Shown here: one piece after another, positions 19,649 through 23,910 of the stretch
Layout of the letters: the number at the start of each line of letters is the position of its first letter
How positions within the stretch are numbered: position 1 is the stretch's first letter
Assembly: GCA_030877765.1 (NCBI GenBank)
Contig: GCA_030877765.1_4853.1
DNA: 46,671 nt
Strand: one strand, 5' to 3'
From: a phage
Notes under the pieces: model-generated
The model's input: only the letters and a program-made list of their open reading frames with translations
The model's database searches: none
What the model was told of the DNA's origin: nothing
Made by a program: the position numbers and the translations under genes

Positions 19649-20293
19649 TTAATCATCCAGTTTCACGCCTGGAATTTTTCCTGCTGCAATGGCTTCATAA
19701 ATTAGCTTGGCCTCGTCCTCGCGCCTGTAATCTTGAGCTGCCATTTCTAACACCGCGCAGATAGACTCAAGTACAGCCTCATGCTTCTTTTCTGCTTCTG
19801 TGCGTAGTGGTTTTAGGCTTTCCGGTACGAAGCAGCATGACCGACCAGCACCACCTTCATCCCAATAGCAAACAGCCACATCGTTTCCGTCCGTTGTTGT
19901 CTTGTGCGCTACAACTTCCATTTCAGTGCCAGCATCAGGAATCCAGTCATTGCAGTATCCTAACTTTGGATTAAAGAAGAATTCTACTTTTGCACCAACT
20001 GGCGGCAGGCCTTCTCCATTCCATGTCTGCTTTTGCAATGCTGCTAGCGCGGATTCATACAAGTCGCGAGTTATCATACAATAATCCGTGGCTACGCTGA
20101 CATAGCGACCGGGTATGGGGATTGCCACGGTGTACTGAAATGGCACATCAAAACCATCGCTATATCCCTTTGGGAAACAAAAAGCAATTGTGATACTGTC
20201 ACCATTGAAATCACCAACTCGACACCTCTCAGCACCATCAGGCCACCCACCACGCTTAGGTAATTCTTGAACTAACAGGTCGATAAGTTTCAT
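19649..20293 (-). CDS. Hypothetical protein (214 aa), last gene of leftward cassette A
   Basis: Long ORF on the opposite strand to the structural genes, coupled to the upstream paralog-A gene. Confidence 0.55.
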   Translation of the reverse strand: MKLIDLLVQELPKRGGWPDGAERCRVGDFNGDSITIAFCFPKGYSDGFDVPFQYTVAIPIPGRYVSVATDYCMITRDLYESALAALQKQTWNGEGLPPVGAKVEFFFNPKLGYCNDWIPDAGTEMEVVAHKTTTDGNDVAVCYWDEGGAGRSCCFVPESLKPLRTEAEKKHEAVLESICAVLEMAAQDYRREDEAKLIYEAIAAGKIPGVKLDD

Positions 20294-20592
20294 TTTGTTT
20301 CTCCCAATGCTTTATTAACCGCGGCACGTGCATTATCCAGAGCGCGACGCTTGCTTGATGTTGTCCAGCATTTTCCGGAGTGGTCGTCGTAGATTTCCAG
20401 AAGTTGCTGGAGTGCTGATAACAGGTCAGGAGATGCCGCTATTAGCCTTGCGTTATGCCATTGCTCGGTTTTATCACCGTTATATGTTGGAGTGAATGCA
20501 ACCTCGACACCAATATCCGAGATAACATCTGGCGCGTTATCATCACCAACAACAACTTCCCATTTTCCATGCGTACCTTTAAATTCTTTCAC
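20290..20592 (-). CDS. KEFKGT-motif protein, paralog A (likely GTG start at 20592)
   Basis: Shares MKEFKGT-G-W N-terminus, AA-P-LL-ALQ and NKALG C-terminal motifs with the 33777-34118 product; GAGGT RBS. Confidence 0.55.
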   Translation of the reverse strand: MKEFKGTHGKWEVVVGDDNAPDVISDIGVEVAFTPTYNGDKTEQWHNARLIAASPDLLSALQQLLEIYDDHSGKCWTTSSKRRALDNARAAVNKALGETK

Positions 20593-20600
20593 ATCCAACC

Positions 20601-20744
20601 TCACTTAATATACTCAACAATCTCAACTTCACGCATCTGCACCAGGCCAAATGGTGCAACCACCTTACCGCACGGACGGATTTTGATTTGCTCAAGGTTG
20701 AACACTCCGCAGCGTCCGTTTTCTTTGAATTTGACCATTACCAT
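20601..20744 (-). CDS. Small protein (47 aa)
   Basis: ATG start; stop overlaps the downstream GTG; below track cutoff. Confidence 0.3.
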   Translation of the reverse strand: MVMVKFKENGRCGVFNLEQIKIRPCGKVVAPFGLVQMREVEIVEYIK

Positions 20745-20746
20745 AA

Positions 20747-20899
20747 TTAATACCCGTTTTTCTTGGCTAATTGTTGCGCACGTTTCTTCGTGTACCCACA
20801 GGCCATCAGGCGCTTGACCTCGTTGCGGCGCCTTGCGAAATGGTACTCACGAGAATTAAATGCACATTCGTTGCTAAAGTTAACATTACGTGGATTCAT
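20747..20899 (-). CDS. Small basic protein (50 aa)
   Basis: GAGGTG RBS 6 nt upstream; Arg/Lys-rich; first ORF after the leftward promoter. Confidence 0.3.
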   Translation of the reverse strand: MNPRNVNFSNECAFNSREYHFARRRNEVKRLMACGYTKKRAQQLAKKNGY

Positions 20900-20931
20900 C
20901 TTCATCACCTCATTCATCACTTGATATAGAT

Positions 20932-20977
20932 ACTATGCACCACCAACCAATCTACGTCAACACCATTGTGATAGAAT
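20932..20977. promoter_or_regulatory. Divergent promoter pair
   Basis: Minus strand TTGACG, 17 bp, CATAGT; plus strand extended -10 TGaTAGAAT. The core CACCACCAACCAATCTACGTCAACA recurs at 34160-34190. Confidence 0.55.
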
Positions 20978-21003
20978 TAATCATTATTTGAACTGGAGGC
21001 AGA

Positions 21004-21282
21004 ATGAAACTATCGCAACGAGGCGTGGAGACGTTTGGAATTACCGATGCCGTGAATATATCGCCTTACATCACTACCGAGACAACGCAGAATCAGTTCG
21101 ACGCGCTGGCAAGTCTTGCCACCGACATTGGCATTTACGCGTTCCGTAAATCAACGCTTCTGAAGAAGCACAACCTCCGCTGCTTCTCATGTGCTGTTGC
21201 GCATTTCATCGCGTGGGGCGAGAAGACTGGCGACAAAGCAAAACGCAAAGCTGAAAAAGAGGTTTACTGGTATGGCTATTAG
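21004..21282 (+). CDS. Lysozyme-like remnant (GH24/P22 gp19-type C-terminal subdomain only)
   Basis: QNQFDALASLATDIGIYAFRKSTLLKKHNL...AHFIAWGEK parallels the P22/T4 lysozyme C-terminal region as recalled from memory; catalytic Glu/Asp/Thr segment absent; has its own RBS (GGAGG). Confidence 0.5.
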   Translation: MKLSQRGVETFGITDAVNISPYITTETTQNQFDALASLATDIGIYAFRKSTLLKKHNLRCFSCAVAHFIAWGEKTGDKAKRKAEKEVYWYGY

Positions 21283-21736
21283 TAAAAACATGAAGGCGTT
21301 TCTGGATATGCTGGCGTACAGCGAGGGCACTGATAACGGGCGGCAGAAAACCAATAATCATGGTTATGATGTGATTGTTGGCGGCTCACTGTTTACCGAC
21401 TATTCCGACCACCCGCGCAAGCTGATTAGCCTGCCAAGGCTGGGCATTAAATCCACCGCCGCCGGTCGCTATCAGGTACTGGCTAAGTTTTATGATGCGT
21501 ACAAAAAGCAATTGCGTTTACCGGACTTCTCCCCCGCATCGCAGGACGCCATTGCAATGCAGCTAATCCGTGAATGCAAGGCCACCGCTGATATTGAGGC
21601 TGGTCGCATTGCTGATGCCATCCATAAATGCCGCTCCCGCTGGGCCTCATTGCCGGGCGCTGGGTATGGTCAGCATGAGCAGAAGCTGGATAAGCTGATT
21701 CAGGTATACAAAGAGGCTGGCGGAGCTGTGGCATGA
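21272..21736 (+). CDS. Endolysin, lambda R-type lytic transglycosylase
   Basis: KAFLDMLAYSEGTDNGRQKTNNHGYDVIVGG..FTDYSDHPR...GRYQ...WASLPGAGYGQ closely tracks lambda R as recalled. Confidence 0.9.
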   Translation: MAISKNMKAFLDMLAYSEGTDNGRQKTNNHGYDVIVGGSLFTDYSDHPRKLISLPRLGIKSTAAGRYQVLAKFYDAYKKQLRLPDFSPASQDAIAMQLIRECKATADIEAGRIADAIHKCRSRWASLPGAGYGQHEQKLDKLIQVYKEAGGAVA

Positions 21737-21972
21737 AAAAGCTAAGCAACTGGCTGCTCGCCGCGTGGATTTCATTCTGCTCGCTGTTACAACTATGGCC
21801 TGATGCAATGATGCATGTGTGGGTAATGATGCCGGATGACCTGAAAGCAGCGCTACCGCCAATCGTGGTCAAAGGTGTGAGTTACTCAATTATGCTTGTC
21901 GGCATCCTCGGCAAAATGCACGGCATGAGGAAGGAAAACCGGAGGCTGCGCAATGATGTCGATTCTCGTTAA
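21733..21972 (+). CDS. Putative holin (two TM helices, charged C-terminus)
   Basis: TM1 LSNWLLAAWISFCSLLQLW, TM2 VSYSIMLVGILG, tail KMHGMRKENRRLRND; ATGA-coupled to the endolysin. Confidence 0.45.
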   Translation: MKKLSNWLLAAWISFCSLLQLWPDAMMHVWVMMPDDLKAALPPIVVKGVSYSIMLVGILGKMHGMRKENRRLRNDVDSR

Positions 21973-22444
21973 ATACTGGCGACCGCTGGCAATTATTATA
22001 ATTGTTGCCGCTGGCGCGTTGTGGGTGGCAAATAAAGTGTCCGGTTATGGCGAGCAACAATATGCCGCCGGATACGCGAAGGCAGTCGCAGAACAGAAGG
22101 CCGCAGACGAACAAGAGGAGCAACGACGCAATGCAGAACTGCAAAAGATTCAGGCCGACGCACAGCAAAGGATTGATGCTGCGCGCAATGATGCTGTTAA
22201 TGCTGCCGCTAAGTCTGGCAGGTTGCAGCAACAACTCACCAGTATCCGCAAGCAGCTCGTCGGATATTCCACCGCTGAGTCCATTGGCAACCCAGCCGCA
22301 GAAACCGGAGTTTTGCTTGCAGACGTGCTCCGCAAATCTGTCGAAAGAAATCAACAGCTGGCAGATTACGCTGACAGGGCGAGAGAGGCAGGATTGACGT
22401 GTGAGGCACAGTATAATTCTCTGCGTAATAAAAAAGCCCCGTGA
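21953..22444 (+). CDS. Rz: Rz-like i-spanin
   Basis: N-terminal TM (LAIIIIVAAGALWV) followed by Gln/Ala-rich coiled coil. Confidence 0.8.
   Translation: MMSILVKYWRPLAIIIIVAAGALWVANKVSGYGEQQYAAGYAKAVAEQKAADEQEEQRRNAELQKIQADAQQRIDAARNDAVNAAAKSGRLQQQLTSIRKQLVGYSTAESIGNPAAETGVLLADVLRKSVERNQQLADYADRAREAGLTCEAQYNSLRNKKAP
22176..22397 (+). CDS. Rz1: Rz1-like o-spanin lipoprotein, embedded in +1 frame within Rz
   Basis: MLRAMMLLMLPLSLAGCSNN: signal peptide with LAGC lipobox; Pro-rich mature region. Confidence 0.7.
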   Translation: MLRAMMLLMLPLSLAGCSNNSPVSASSSSDIPPLSPLATQPQKPEFCLQTCSANLSKEINSWQITLTGRERQD

Positions 22445-22460
22445 TGGGGCTTTGTTTTAA
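22433..22460. terminator. Bidirectional terminator
   Basis: Stem agcccc/ggggct overlapping the Rz stop, followed by TTTGTTTT. Confidence 0.75.
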
Positions 22461-23121: not shown

Positions 23122-23423
23122 TATTTAATCTCTCCGTTCAGTTCATTAACAATTAACGTTGCATAGCCAGCAATATCTTTCCAGCTGTCATCATAAGTCG
23201 GGTCGCCATTCAGAATGCGCCCAATCTTGTGCTGAATCATGTCGAGCGCCTCGCGTTGACTTGGTGTGAGATTGCGCCAGCCATCTACCTTGCGCATCAC
23301 ATCTTTCAACTCCTGCATAATTTCAGCGCCGTCTTTGAATTTACCGTATCGACTACCGCGTTCGGTGATGAGTCGCTCTGTTGCGTCAGTATGGCGCTTA
23401 TCGCCCGTGATTTGTGAACTCAT
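23121..23423 (-). CDS. Hypothetical protein (100 aa)
   Basis: Operon-coupled ORF. Confidence 0.45.
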   Translation of the reverse strand: MSSQITGDKRHTDATERLITERGSRYGKFKDGAEIMQELKDVMRKVDGWRNLTPSQREALDMIQHKIGRILNGDPTYDDSWKDIAGYATLIVNELNGEIK

Positions 23424-23910
23424 TGTGATGCATTCTCCTGAATTCTTTTATTTTTGCTTCTGCTTCTCTTATGTCGGAAAAGTAACCAACTGTGAATCTT
23501 TTGCCATTTACTCCAACTCTTGCATGCCACTTGTTGTGCGATGAACTCCAGTTAACCCCCTTGATACCGCTAGTGTTGTTTTTGTTCATTGCTTTGTTGT
23601 GGCTATTCTCAAATTTGCTGGCCTCCCTTAAATTGCACGCCCTGTTGTCATTGCGAATGCCATTAATGTGGTCAATCATTTCACTTGCTGGCGCGCCATG
23701 AATGCATATCCATGCCAATCTGTGAGCAAGAAAAGCCCTACCGCAAAGAATTATTTGCACATATCCATCTGGCTTTAAGTAGCCAGCCACACTCCCTTTT
23801 TCTGCAATCCTATTCCTTGTCTTTAGCCATTTAAATTCCCCAGTTAGTGGATTGTAGTAAAGGTAACTCAATATAAACTCCCTACTCGGCTCATCTCTCC
23901 TATGCCTCAT
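23398..23910 (-). CDS. HNH-AP2 homing endonuclease (paralog 3 of 4)
   Basis: AHRLAWICIHGAPASEMIDHINGIRNDNRACNLR followed by NTSGIKGVNWSSSHNKWHARVGVNGKRFTVGYF. Confidence 0.85.
   Translation of the reverse strand: MRHRRDEPSREFILSYLYYNPLTGEFKWLKTRNRIAEKGSVAGYLKPDGYVQIILCGRAFLAHRLAWICIHGAPASEMIDHINGIRNDNRACNLREASKFENSHNKAMNKNNTSGIKGVNWSSSHNKWHARVGVNGKRFTVGYFSDIREAEAKIKEFRRMHHNEFTNHGR

Follow-up and report, generated by a model that had tools for sequence, protein, structure and literature searches.

Why would a phage keep, at the head of its lysis operon, a 92-residue protein that corresponds to part of a lysozyme without the catalytic segment, directly in front of the gene for a complete endolysin of a different family? 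We addressed this question for such a gene, hereafter g92, in the window, that is, the whole 46,671-nucleotide stretch of phage DNA analyzed here, which belongs to a Skate/Vi II-E1-like Salmonella siphophage.

Organization of the lysis operon

g92 is the first gene of the operon; an overlapping gene for a complete endolysin (R) comes next, followed by a DUF7940 holin gene and the Rz/Rz1 pair. The features of the region are as follows.

20969..20977, + strand: candidate extended -10 promoter element TGATAGAAT for the rightward lysis operon, read from the sequence, with a putative function
20995..20999, + strand: Shine-Dalgarno GGAGG of g92, 4 nt before the ATG, read from the sequence
21004..21282, + strand: g92 (92 aa, 10.4 kDa, soluble), GH24 C-terminal subdomain plus helix A, without the catalytic lobe
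21016..21036, + strand: N-terminal helix, codons 5-11 (AF2 helix 5-11), equivalent to helix A of T4 lysozyme
21037..21054, + strand: deletion junction, codons ~12-17, where ~52 codons (catalytic Glu, Asp and Thr plus the beta-sheet lobe) are missing; breakpoint ambiguous by a few codons
21088..21273, + strand: five helices of the C-terminal subdomain, codons 29-90, from AF2 and invariant columns
21257..21262, + strand: Shine-Dalgarno AAGAGG of R, inside the last g92 codons, read from the sequence
21272..21736, + strand: R, 154-aa lambda R-type lytic transglycosylase by homology, the presumed working endolysin
21733..21972, + strand: holin, 79 aa, two hydrophobic segments (Pfam DUF7940; PHROG 13249, E 3.7e-51)
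21953..22444, + strand: Rz-like i-spanin, 163 aa (Pfam DUF2514, E 4.4e-30; PHROG 312 Rz-like spanin)
22131..22397, + strand: Rz1-like o-spanin, embedded in the +1 frame of Rz, lipobox LSLAGC, from translation
22431..22459, no strand assigned: GC-rich hairpin between an A-run and a T-run, from the sequence and a minus-strand terminator scan

A sequence-only reading of this locus had described g92 as a gene with its own ribosome-binding site that overlaps the start of a transglycosylase of a different family, and both points held: GGAGG stands at the expected place, and the g92 stop codon TAG (21280-21282) sits 11 nt inside the lambda R homologue, whose ATG is at 21272. R matched the lambda lysozyme structures 3D3D/1AM7 with an E value of 6.5e-62 over residues 3-153, was 66% identical to lambda R by tblastn, and was assigned to the PHROG 90 endolysin family. 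Its motif AYSEGTDNG aligned with AWSEGTDNG of lambda, so that the catalytic Glu (Glu19 of lambda R) is kept. Full-length similarity and the catalytic Glu place R in the lambda R-type family, with transglycosylase chemistry predicted. The holin start overlaps the R stop codon (ATGA), and the maximum hydropathy of the holin was 1.73; in g92 we found no transmembrane segment (maximum 19-residue hydropathy of 0.83).

The candidate promoter element overlaps, on the other strand, a leftward promoter region whose TTGACG -35 was located by scanning at 20960-20955. In distant relatives, a block ...CTACGTCAA...TGTGATAGAAT / TATGATAAAAT / TGGTAGAAT was conserved 5' of the lysozyme gene, whether short or intact. 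At the other end, the hairpin is likely a bidirectional terminator that closes the lysis operon; a terminator is annotated at the equivalent position in Skate, and an Rz1 equivalent is annotated in Skate, swi2 and Tbat1_6. The lysis region had no near match in complete E. coli genomes and is thus not a known prophage there.

A GH24 lysozyme half without the catalytic segment

In a profile search, Pfam PF00959 matched g92 at 41.8 bits (cut-off 22.3; E value 1.6e-10), which places it in the GH24 family, as the sequence-only reading had supposed by comparison with P22/T4-type lysozymes. The match covered residues 19-78 only, corresponding to profile positions 55-114 of 125, and sequence matches in the PDB were GH24 endolysins, likewise over their C-terminal halves only. 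PHROG 10457 matched residues 1-90 (E 3.5e-39).

We located the missing part in three alignments (A1, gh24 and A3). Residues 1-12 aligned with the N-terminal helix of intact GH24 proteins, syntenic orthologues included, with the helix of codons 5-11 opposite MKLSQRGKELIK of the intact orthologues. A gap of ~52 residues followed, after which g92 was aligned from the TTQNQFDAL motif through to the C terminus. Within the gap lie E15, D24 and T33 (CF-SP1 numbering), and no equivalents of these residues were found on re-alignment with intact GH24, which bears out the earlier claim that the catalytic segment is missing. Also gone is the beta-sheet lobe, which forms one wall of the cleft. What remains of the cleft has changed as well: in place of the motif [YF]N[IV]G, g92 has TDIG and the wider family ASIG, AAIG or TSIG, and the cleft-side GKVxxGL loop of GH24 is ~5 residues shorter in g92. 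A relic possibly retained for cell-wall binding or regulation had been suggested; because the cleft motif has changed and the cleft-side loop is shortened, binding through the canonical cleft is doubtful.

The AF2 model of g92 (pLDDT 95.4) consisted of six helices and zero strands. Foldseek comparisons with GH24 structures gave a TMq of 0.70-0.83 and covered the C-terminal half only (TMt 0.35-0.49). The alignment with 7M5I (TMq 0.82-0.83) spanned 151 columns, indicating that helix A is included across the gap. Overall, the alignments and profiles confirm that g92 corresponds to a GH24 remnant without the catalytic segment.

We then considered whether the missing half is encoded elsewhere. When all six frames of the window were searched with a custom HMM built from intact GH24 proteins, g92 was the sole match (positions 66-141 of 145, E 2e-22). 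The missing half is therefore not encoded elsewhere in the window, which rules out a split gene. A programmed frameshift joining g92 to R was dropped as well, because the R frame is open for just 27 codons (81 nt) upstream of its ATG, an opening expected by chance (probability ~0.27), and no slippery site was seen.

Databases label g92 'endolysin' or 'lysozyme', and it could accordingly be taken for a muralytic enzyme. Its Pfam GH24 score exceeds the threshold, and the Skate GenBank note on g92 states that it 'has Ex5Dx8T motif'; residues with that spacing (E9, D15 and T24) do exist in the protein. However, the canonical GH24 catalytic motif is E-x8-[DC]-x5-T rather than Ex5Dx8T. Residues E9 and D15 of g92 align with the non-catalytic E9 and D67 of CF-SP1, and they vary within the clade (E9D, D15N) and in wider members (K/M and E/N), so alignment and non-conservation rule out Ex5Dx8T as the catalytic motif. 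The whole beta-sheet lobe, half of the cleft, is missing, the YN[IV]G motif is gone, and a bona fide endolysin always comes next after g92. We regard a muralytic g92 as highly improbable.

A conserved family with varied partners

Exhaustive and profile searches returned homologues of 90-98 aa at 36-67% identity. In 15 diverse members of this short family, K-H-N, C-x-x-C, W and E-x-Y-x-Y-G-Y were invariant, and g92 shares both the length and these residues. The family-invariant positions in g92 are Q31, G43, S50, K55-H56-N57, C60-x-x-C63, F68, W71, R81 and E84, followed by the tail Y88-x-Y90-G91-Y92. The pI is not conserved (9.2, 7.7, 6.1). At 80% identity or more, g92 was present in 140 phage records and R in 143, numbers that point to co-inheritance of the two genes.

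Every surveyed short gene with downstream sequence had an endolysin gene immediately downstream of it, including homologues as distant as 36-45% identity; two contig sets fetched largely the same IMG/VR contigs, and the survey therefore counts distinct loci. The gene order of the window, with the short gene at the head of the operon, a complete overlapping endolysin gene and a DUF7940 holin, recurred throughout these loci. The partner was of the R type in L043, L049-51, L053 and all Skate-like loci; L044 and L048 had a GH108 protein with PG_binding_3 instead, and L052 a SAR-type GH24.

Two architectures were found. Type A consists of helix A plus the subdomain and results from an internal deletion. 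In type B, ~85 residues of the C-terminal part are kept in one piece (AF2 pLDDT 90), with contiguous Foldseek alignments (TMq 0.78-0.80). The two types likely arose independently. Other short matches from the representative search (P0107, P0111, P0115 and others) were N-terminally cut ordinary lysozymes with a different architecture. Three variants that looked like compensated frameshifts keeping a 92-codon frame (P0029, P0033, P0035) came from a contig with 1-2-nt indels in all genes, and we set them aside as assembly noise. Overall, the comparisons confirm that g92 corresponds to the C-terminal half of a GH24 lysozyme and represents a conserved family rather than a decaying relic.

Relatives with an intact lysozyme at the same position

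The sequence-only reading had raised the replacement of one lysin by another, and the relatives agree with it. Salmonella phage CF-SP1, Escherichia phage Bas81, ~10 other enterobacterial phages and ~47 Klebsiella/Aeromonas relatives carry a single intact GH24 gene of 144-147 aa exactly at the g92 position, directly before the same holin. CF-SP1 belongs to the same genus as swi2, which carries g92 and R. The intact GH24 gene of CF-SP1 has the same GGAGG signal and first 7 codons as g92, with 89% DNA identity over 20922-21024. Along the window, identity to CF-SP1 DNA was 89-91% up to 21024 (codon 7), was then lost, and was 88% again from 21733, the holin ATG. This break at codon 7 and the resumption at the holin support lysin replacement.

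Over the retained part, the intact syntenic GH24 proteins (CF-SP1, Bas81 and the Klebsiella/Aeromonas 'Roufvirinae'; P22 gp19/T4 e-type) were 44-50% identical to g92. They share with it the C-terminal helical subdomain, the genomic slot, the promoter and RBS, the first 7 codons and a clade-specific KHNxxC[FY]xC motif. Unlike them, g92 lacks the ~52 residues, has an altered YN[IV]G motif, a shortened GKVxxGL loop and a new tail, E[VI]Y[WY]YGY, and always has another endolysin beside it. In these relatives, which lack a half-lysozyme, the same holin and spanins work, although their intact GH24 contains the subdomain.

Possible stages in between were also seen. In one contig, an intact GH24 gene is followed by an R-type gene, a possible replacement intermediate. 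P0272 is a full-length GH24 relative located before a GH108 gene, with E15 changed to Y and T33 to R; for P0272, P0271 and the L052 SAR partner, the source is in each case a single ~1.1-kb metagenomic contig, and they could be assembly chimeras.

Selection on g92

We next compared alleles. All 37 g92 alleles had 92 codons and zero stop codons. Across 35 alleles, dN/dS was 0.118 (bootstrap CI 0.067-0.185), falling to 0.072 in codons 19-71, and out-of-frame controls gave 1.6-1.8. For R, dN/dS was 0.034, and the g92 protein evolves ~3 times faster than R (dN of 0.34 vs 0.10). As a possible sign of faster evolution since the truncation, an NJ tree gave a longer branch, with relative-rate tests that were mostly non-significant and outgroup-dependent. 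The dN/dS values indicate that g92 is kept by purifying selection and is not a decaying relic. The earlier suggestion of a relic retained for some purpose is thus right about the retention; the word 'relic' is too weak, because we are dealing with a conserved family with three endolysin types and two truncation architectures.

Synonymous diversity dropped to 0.08 in codons 84-92, compared with ~0.3 elsewhere in g92, and this low variation in the last nine codons, together with the gene overlap, makes translational coupling of R to g92 plausible. Moreover, the junction ...TATGGCTAT... is common to relatives in which the downstream gene is of the R type or a SAR-GH24. The 11-nt overlap, the R Shine-Dalgarno within g92, the low synonymous diversity, the junction serving both partner types and the use by g92 of the expression signals of the ancestral endolysin would all fit a g92 that is a translated leader only, persisting for its RBS and for the Shine-Dalgarno and ATG of R, with re-initiation on R and an inert protein. 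A leader, however, needs an open frame and not a particular sequence, yet codons 19-71 combine their low dN/dS with synonymous sites that vary freely (pS of 0.25-0.47). What has been kept coincides with a unit able to fold by itself, and this holds for both topologies; the family invariants are scattered across the whole fold. In type B, the endolysin starts 20 nt past the conserved YYYGY codons with an ATGA overlap only, and the tail is still kept. R also has a good Shine-Dalgarno of its own. We therefore consider a pure leader unlikely.

A selected protein might alternatively act outside lysis, by interfering with the GH24 of competing or superinfecting phages (through subdomain complementation or poisoning), in counter-defence, or in another interaction with the host. 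Purifying selection without a detectable tie to one endolysin type would suit this reading, as would the separability of the T4 lysozyme subdomains as folding units and the co-circulation of intact-GH24 and half-lysozyme phages within one genus, infecting the same hosts. On the other hand, g92 is invariably first in the lysis operon and overlaps the endolysin gene, and PADLOC gave no relevant match to defence or anti-defence models. Such a role outside lysis appears improbable to us.

Discussion

Our preferred explanation, which we hold to be probable, is that g92 is a pseudo-lysozyme kept for a non-catalytic, lysis-related function. We envisage an ancestral operon that began with a two-lobed GH24 endolysin, followed by the holin and spanins. 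A second endolysin, here of the lambda R type, would have entered the operon behind the GH24 gene, ahead of the holin, and taken over wall cleavage, and the GH24 gene would then have lost its catalytic N-terminal lobe through an in-frame deletion, leaving helix A, a short conserved linker and the helical C-terminal subdomain. g92 would be the operon's first product, expressed with the promoter and RBS of the original endolysin, and would be folded in vivo. The phage would still depend on a second, non-catalytic activity located in the C-terminal subdomain. This would be a binding activity that modulates lysis, with either a cassette partner (holin or spanin) or the wall as its target. The surfaces involved would lie outside the degraded cleft and may include the clade-specific His/Cys-x-x-Cys patch and the aromatic tail. 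At the RNA level, the 3' end of g92 would also serve as the translation-initiation region of the downstream endolysin, as suggested by the TATGGCTAT junction common to relatives and the low synonymous diversity of codons 84-92. Some observations weigh against this explanation: the holin and spanins function in relatives that have only the intact GH24, the g92 protein changes faster than R, and its pI varies.

A more specific version, which we put forward tentatively, is that the non-catalytic job of the subdomain pre-dates the truncation. It might concern lysis timing, or coupling of endolysin action to the holin or spanins via the His/Cys-x-x-Cys patch and the aromatic tail. With another endolysin supplying catalysis, the lobe would have been lost at least twice independently and the subdomain kept.

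Several small proteins of lysis cassettes offer parallels. Gp1 of mycobacteriophage Ms6 is chaperone-like, and its gene overlaps lysA; PlyCB and the products of internal starts that consist of the cell-wall-binding domain only are non-catalytic subunits of multimeric endolysins; and T4 RIII is a small cytoplasmic antiholin cofactor. These proteins resemble g92 in being small, soluble, non-catalytic and encoded in a lysis cassette, from which they are co-expressed with the lysin or holin, with an overlap of the endolysin gene in Ms6. They have no sequence or fold kinship with g92, however, which derives from a catalytic domain itself. In addition, the partners of g92 come from three endolysin types, unrelated or divergent, and this speaks against a chaperone dedicated to one partner. 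Pfam, PHROG and NCBIfam matches of g92 were lysozymes only, with no kinship to antiholins or holin regulators (T4 RI/RIII, P2 LysA, lambda S107); a role as an RIII-type cytoplasmic cofactor is conceivable by functional analogy.

A GH24 fold has been reused non-lytically elsewhere: the muramidase domain of SpmX (Caulobacter/Asticcacaulis, PDB 6H9D), which is among both the sequence and the fold matches of g92, acts as a localisation factor. SpmX, however, has a complete two-lobed domain within a larger bacterial membrane protein, whereas g92 is half a domain that stands alone and belongs to the lysis operon of a phage. Another parallel is engineered. In the T4 lysozyme construct CTF of the Marqusee laboratory, residues 75-164 are joined to helix A (residues 1-12), and this C-terminal subdomain is reported to fold autonomously (bioRxiv 10.1101/353649). 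Both proteins consist of helix A and the C-terminal subdomain without the equivalent of residues 13-74, the fold of g92 being predicted (pLDDT 95). Unlike CTF, g92 is natural and under selection, retains the native order, with helix A leading into a short linker, and belongs to a P22-like branch rather than to T4 e.

A literature search found no description of the truncated protein, and other papers repeat annotations only. The Skate announcement lists the transglycosylase as the only endolysin, and the S10 'two endolysins' paper deals with another Jerseyvirus cassette. The half-lysozyme family thus appears to be undescribed and is labelled "endolysin" in databases. Among sequenced phages of Salmonella, Escherichia and Shigella, ~140 carry g92, and biocontrol use has been proposed for many of these; metagenomic data add well over a thousand sequences. 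Where an 'endolysin' is cloned from these phages, no activity would be expected from the g92 frame, and automated tallies of phages with 'two endolysins' are inflated.

The lysis cassettes of Gram-negative phages have been thought well inventoried, with a holin or antiholin, an endolysin and spanins; g92 adds an extra member that is widely conserved. Within one operon, the relatives present a replacement series of an intact enzyme, two enzymes, a dead full-length enzyme and a half enzyme. In addition, protein-folding research gains a natural equivalent to its engineered C-terminal subdomain of T4 lysozyme, and there is now a hint, open to direct test, that a domain of an endolysin can have a function that is not enzymatic. 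The BASEL collection provides tractable phages on E. coli K-12: Bas77-79, with the half-lysozyme and R, and Bas81, with the intact GH24. If the more specific version given above is true, the subdomain would be a stand-alone part of Gram-negative phage lysis cassettes that had gone unrecognised, and nature would offer here a protein cut down to a single autonomous folding subdomain.

g92 heads the lysis operon

g92, the half-lysozyme gene, is the first of the five genes that make up a compact lysis operon and overlaps R, the lambda R-type transglycosylase gene, its stop codon lying 11 nt inside R. The sequence-only reading had given g92 its own ribosome-binding site and an overlap with the start of a lysin of a different family; both were confirmed.

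Features of the lysis operon
20995-20999, +, Shine-Dalgarno GGAGG of g92, read in the sequence
21004-21282, +, g92, ORF of 92 residues
starts ATG 21272, +, R, 154 aa; lambda R homologue (E 6.5e-62 to 3D3D/1AM7), catalytic-Glu motif SEGT kept
21733-21972, +, holin, two TM; DUF7940 (Pfam), PHROG holin
21953-22444, +, Rz-like i-spanin (Pfam/PHROG)
22131-22397, +, Rz1 lipoprotein embedded in Rz, from translation
22431-22459, strand unassigned, GC hairpin terminator; perfect hairpin with AAAAA on one side and TTTGTTTTA on the other

The hairpin loop contains the stop codon of Rz, and the terminator thus overlaps the end of the last gene; it probably acts in both directions. Upstream of g92, the short divergent intergenic region (20922-21003) is kept in very distant relatives (loci L037, L039, L043, L044, L046-L049 and L053). 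Its conserved block, ...CAATCTACGTCAA..., reads as a TTGACG -35 element on the minus strand; after it comes TGTGATAGAAT / TATGATAAAAT / TGGTAGAAT, which reads as an extended -10 of the plus strand. The region looks like a back-to-back promoter pair that would serve the lysis operon rightward and a small-gene block leftward.

This leftward small-ORF block (19649-20920, minus), in which no ORF had a Pfam match, differs greatly between phages that otherwise share ~90% identity: just 4 of 37 related loci had the 57-aa ORF (20747-20920), the ORFs of 104 and 214 aa were often swapped for others, and the 47-aa ORF (20601-20744) was the sole nearly universal member. Escherichia phage ZCEC08 (L001, 2552-2722) and other close relatives have an extra ~90-170 bp between holin and Rz, annotated as a 56-aa hypothetical ORF and missing from the window. 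The closest relatives (L001/L003) have an annotated HNH homing-endonuclease gene ~1 kb past the end of the operon, which by homology would lie at about 23400-23900 (minus) in the window. The cassettes of L043 and L044 are flanked by HNH genes too, and such genes may be relevant to the frequent module exchange at this locus.

g92 derives from a GH24 lysozyme and lacks the catalytic lobe

The g92 product matched Phage_lysozyme (GH24) in Pfam above threshold (41.8 bits vs 22.3, E 1.6e-10), with the match confined to residues 19-78, equivalent to profile positions 55-114 of 125. Its PDB sequence matches were GH24 endolysins aligned in their C-terminal halves only, and phrog_10457, a small family of its own labeled 'endolysin', took the protein full-length (PHROGs, E 3.5e-39). 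On alignment with intact GH24 proteins, residues 1-12 corresponded to the N-terminal helix, a gap of ~52 residues followed, and the sequence aligned again from 'TTQNQFDAL' to the C-terminus. E15, D24 and T33 of the syntenic orthologues (CF-SP1 numbering), which match the catalytic residues of the E-G / D / T-I-G motifs in solved GH24 enzymes, fell in this gap. Re-alignment recovered no intact triad, so the proposal of a lysozyme remnant without its catalytic core held, and residual muralytic activity is very unlikely. The window encodes no further part of a GH24 protein, and we therefore rejected the idea that g92 is half of a split gene. By homology g92 belongs to GH24, but it is without the catalytic residues, two-lobed fold and cleft motifs that define the enzyme family.

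The ORF is named 'endolysin' or 'lysozyme' in databases. The canonical GH24 motif is E-x8-[DC]-x5-T. A GenBank note on the orthologue of phage Skate (L002, NC_054639.1, CDS 1585-1863), 'has Ex5Dx8T motif; endolysin_glycosidase', gives the opposite spacing; moreover, E9 and D15 of g92 pair with non-catalytic positions and are both unconserved across the wider short-protein family. As a catalytic motif it is misleading, and the note looks like a mistake that RefSeq records have carried on as 'endolysin (x2)'.

AlphaFold2 produced a very confident, all-helical model of g92 (pLDDT 95.4, pTM 0.88), whose best structural matches were GH24 endolysins (TM-score 0.70-0.83 query-normalised, 0.35-0.49 target-normalised); one alignment bridged the deleted lobe and took in the N-terminal helix. 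[quoted passage not shown]

Relatives carry an intact GH24 lysozyme in place of g92

Over the lysis region, Salmonella phage vB_SenS_ST1UNAM shares 99% identity with the window; Skate, Vi II-E1, SeSz, swi2, Akira, KFS-SE2, BASEL Bas77-79 and many more share ~90%, and a recent proposal (PMC11769527) names these Skate-like relatives the enterobacterial 'Skatevirinae'. The 279-bp gene followed by an R-type gene was found in all of these ~90-99% identical relatives, and phage records at ≥80% identity numbered 140 for g92 and 143 for R. In other relatives, the same slot held a single intact GH24 gene of 144-147 aa that overlapped the holin start directly, and R was absent. These included Salmonella phage CF-SP1, D10, Pu29, HC6, Bas81 and Citrobacter K1M, together with ~47 Klebsiella, Aeromonas and Vibrio 'Roufvirinae' phages. 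CF-SP1 belongs to the genus Swiduovirus, as does swi2, which has a g92-type gene and R. Identity between window and CF-SP1 DNA was 89-91% as far as 21024 (g92 codon 7), was then lost, and came back at 88% exactly from the holin ATG (21733), which reads as a clean cassette difference within conserved flanks. g92 also clustered with the syntenic intact lysozymes in a distance tree and shared with them K-H-N-x-x-C-[FY]-x-C, absent from generic GH24 proteins. The intact gene in the same slot and the cassette difference support the earlier suggestion that the locus records one lysin replaced by another.

Some record labels look doubtful: OR544125.1 ('Acinetobacter phage vB_AbaM_AB4P2', named as a myovirus) matches these Salmonella/E. 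coli siphophages at ~91% identity across the lysis region, and several ~135 kb 'Campylobacter phage' records (e.g. MG065647.1, D#) carry an rV5-type R gene identical to that of E. coli phages.

A conserved family accompanies at least three endolysin kinds

An exhaustive HMMER search over 1.84 billion representatives and a profile search over 5.8 billion proteins recovered homologues of 90-98 aa at 36-67% identity. The family extends far beyond the Skate-like clade, and its partner endolysin can be exchanged.

Short genes of the family and what follows them
Type A, 92-96 aa, g92 architecture: overlapping R-type gene, DUF7940 holin, spanin; several ~46-48 kb phage contigs, Flyfo siphovirus Tbat1_6
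Type A, other partner, one gene, from one ~1.1-kb metagenomic contig: GH24 endolysin whose N-terminus bears a hydrophobic, signal-anchor-release-like segment
Type B, 90-98 aa: 171-aa GH108 + PG_binding_3 endolysin, holin, spanin

Type B is a contiguous C-terminal piece without helix A (AF2 pLDDT 90.3; contiguous Foldseek alignments to GH24 structures, TMq 0.78-0.80). The junctions of the two types differ, which suggests that the catalytic lobe was lost independently in each. In a scripted survey of the fetched loci, a complete endolysin came immediately after every short gene with downstream sequence, and the holin came directly after the syntenic intact GH24 genes, with two exceptions, each known from one ~1.1-kb metagenomic contig. 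P0271 (143 aa) joins an intact E/D/T lobe to a family-type C-terminus and precedes an R-type gene; its 5' and 3' parts resemble different cassette types, and it is possibly an assembly chimera. P0272 (147 aa, full-length) has E15 replaced by Tyr and T33 by Arg, and precedes GH108; it and the signal-anchor-release-like GH24 partner could likewise be chimeric. With the other forms, P0271 and P0272 suggest a series from an enzyme alone, to two enzymes, to a dead full-length protein or a half-protein.

Across 15 diverse members, Q31, A34, S37-L38-A39, I42-G43, F47, S50, K55-H56-N57, C60, C63, F68, W71, R81, E84, E86, Y88 and Y90-G91-Y92 were invariant. The cleft motif [YF]N[IV]G was gone from all short forms, and the 'GKVxxGL' loop was shorter. 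Residues 56-67 (21169-21204) form H56-x3-C60-x2-C63(-x3-H67), a Cys-x-x-Cys flanked by His where a helix begins. The H56/C60/C63 pattern is invariant in the short family and recurs, without H67, in this phage group's intact lysozymes; generic GH24 proteins have L...D-[YF]-x-G instead. This patch could be a redox or metal site.

g92 is under purifying selection

All 37 copies of g92 across relatives (35 distinct DNA sequences) were exactly 92 codons long, without stop codons.

dN/dS in the lysis operon
g92, whole gene: 0.118 (bootstrap CI 0.067-0.185)
g92, codons 19-71: 0.072
g92, N-terminal 18 codons: 0.345
g92, two wrong frames (control): 1.6-1.8
R: 0.034
holin: 0.073
Rz: 0.229

The relic has thus been retained, as the sequence-only reading thought possible, and it is not decaying. 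Synonymous diversity was normal over most of the gene (0.25-0.47) and only 0.08 in the last nine codons, where the AAGAGG Shine-Dalgarno and ATG of R lie; the tail is therefore constrained as RNA also, and the body as protein. Constraint on the RNA at the 3' end would suit a pure translated leader for the endolysin, but protein-level constraint in the rest of g92 speaks against this alternative, which we consider improbable. At deeper divergence, the short protein evolved ~3-fold faster than R (dN 0.34 vs 0.10; dS saturated), and the type B short protein had a dN/dS of 0.21-0.31 vs 0.02-0.03 for GH108. The short protein is constrained, though less than the enzymes.

Apparent compensated frameshifts in g92 variants P0029, P0033 and P0035 were rejected, as their source assembly is indel-ridden. 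L040 (ENA ERZ1948697 contig_319) carries 1-2-nt homopolymer indels across all genes; such contigs should be mined with caution.

g92 most likely has an accessory role in lysis

We infer that g92 is expressed, folds in vivo and performs a non-catalytic function. This is most likely an accessory role in lysis, because g92 invariably opens the cassette and its subdomain persists whichever enzyme supplies catalysis. A function outside lysis, such as interference with competitors' GH24 enzymes, seems unlikely beside it. The accessory protein might bind the holin or spanin, bind the wall, or act in timing, and its functional surfaces may lie in the clade-specific His/Cys-x-x-Cys patch and in the aromatic tail. 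Cell-wall binding or regulation had been proposed as a possible reason for retention; the degraded cleft argues against canonical peptidoglycan binding.

Small accessory proteins from genes next to those of endolysins (Ms6 Gp1, PlyCB-type subunits and T4 RIII) are among the closest analogues of g92, as are the engineered T4L C-terminal subdomain fragment and the co-opted SpmX muramidase domain; none is homologous in the relevant sense or has its architecture. The Skate announcement names only the transglycosylase as endolysin, and we found no published description of a g92-type truncation in the literature. We regard g92 as a lysin-derived pseudoenzyme that is widespread and sharply defined, and that lends itself to direct tests in tractable phages.
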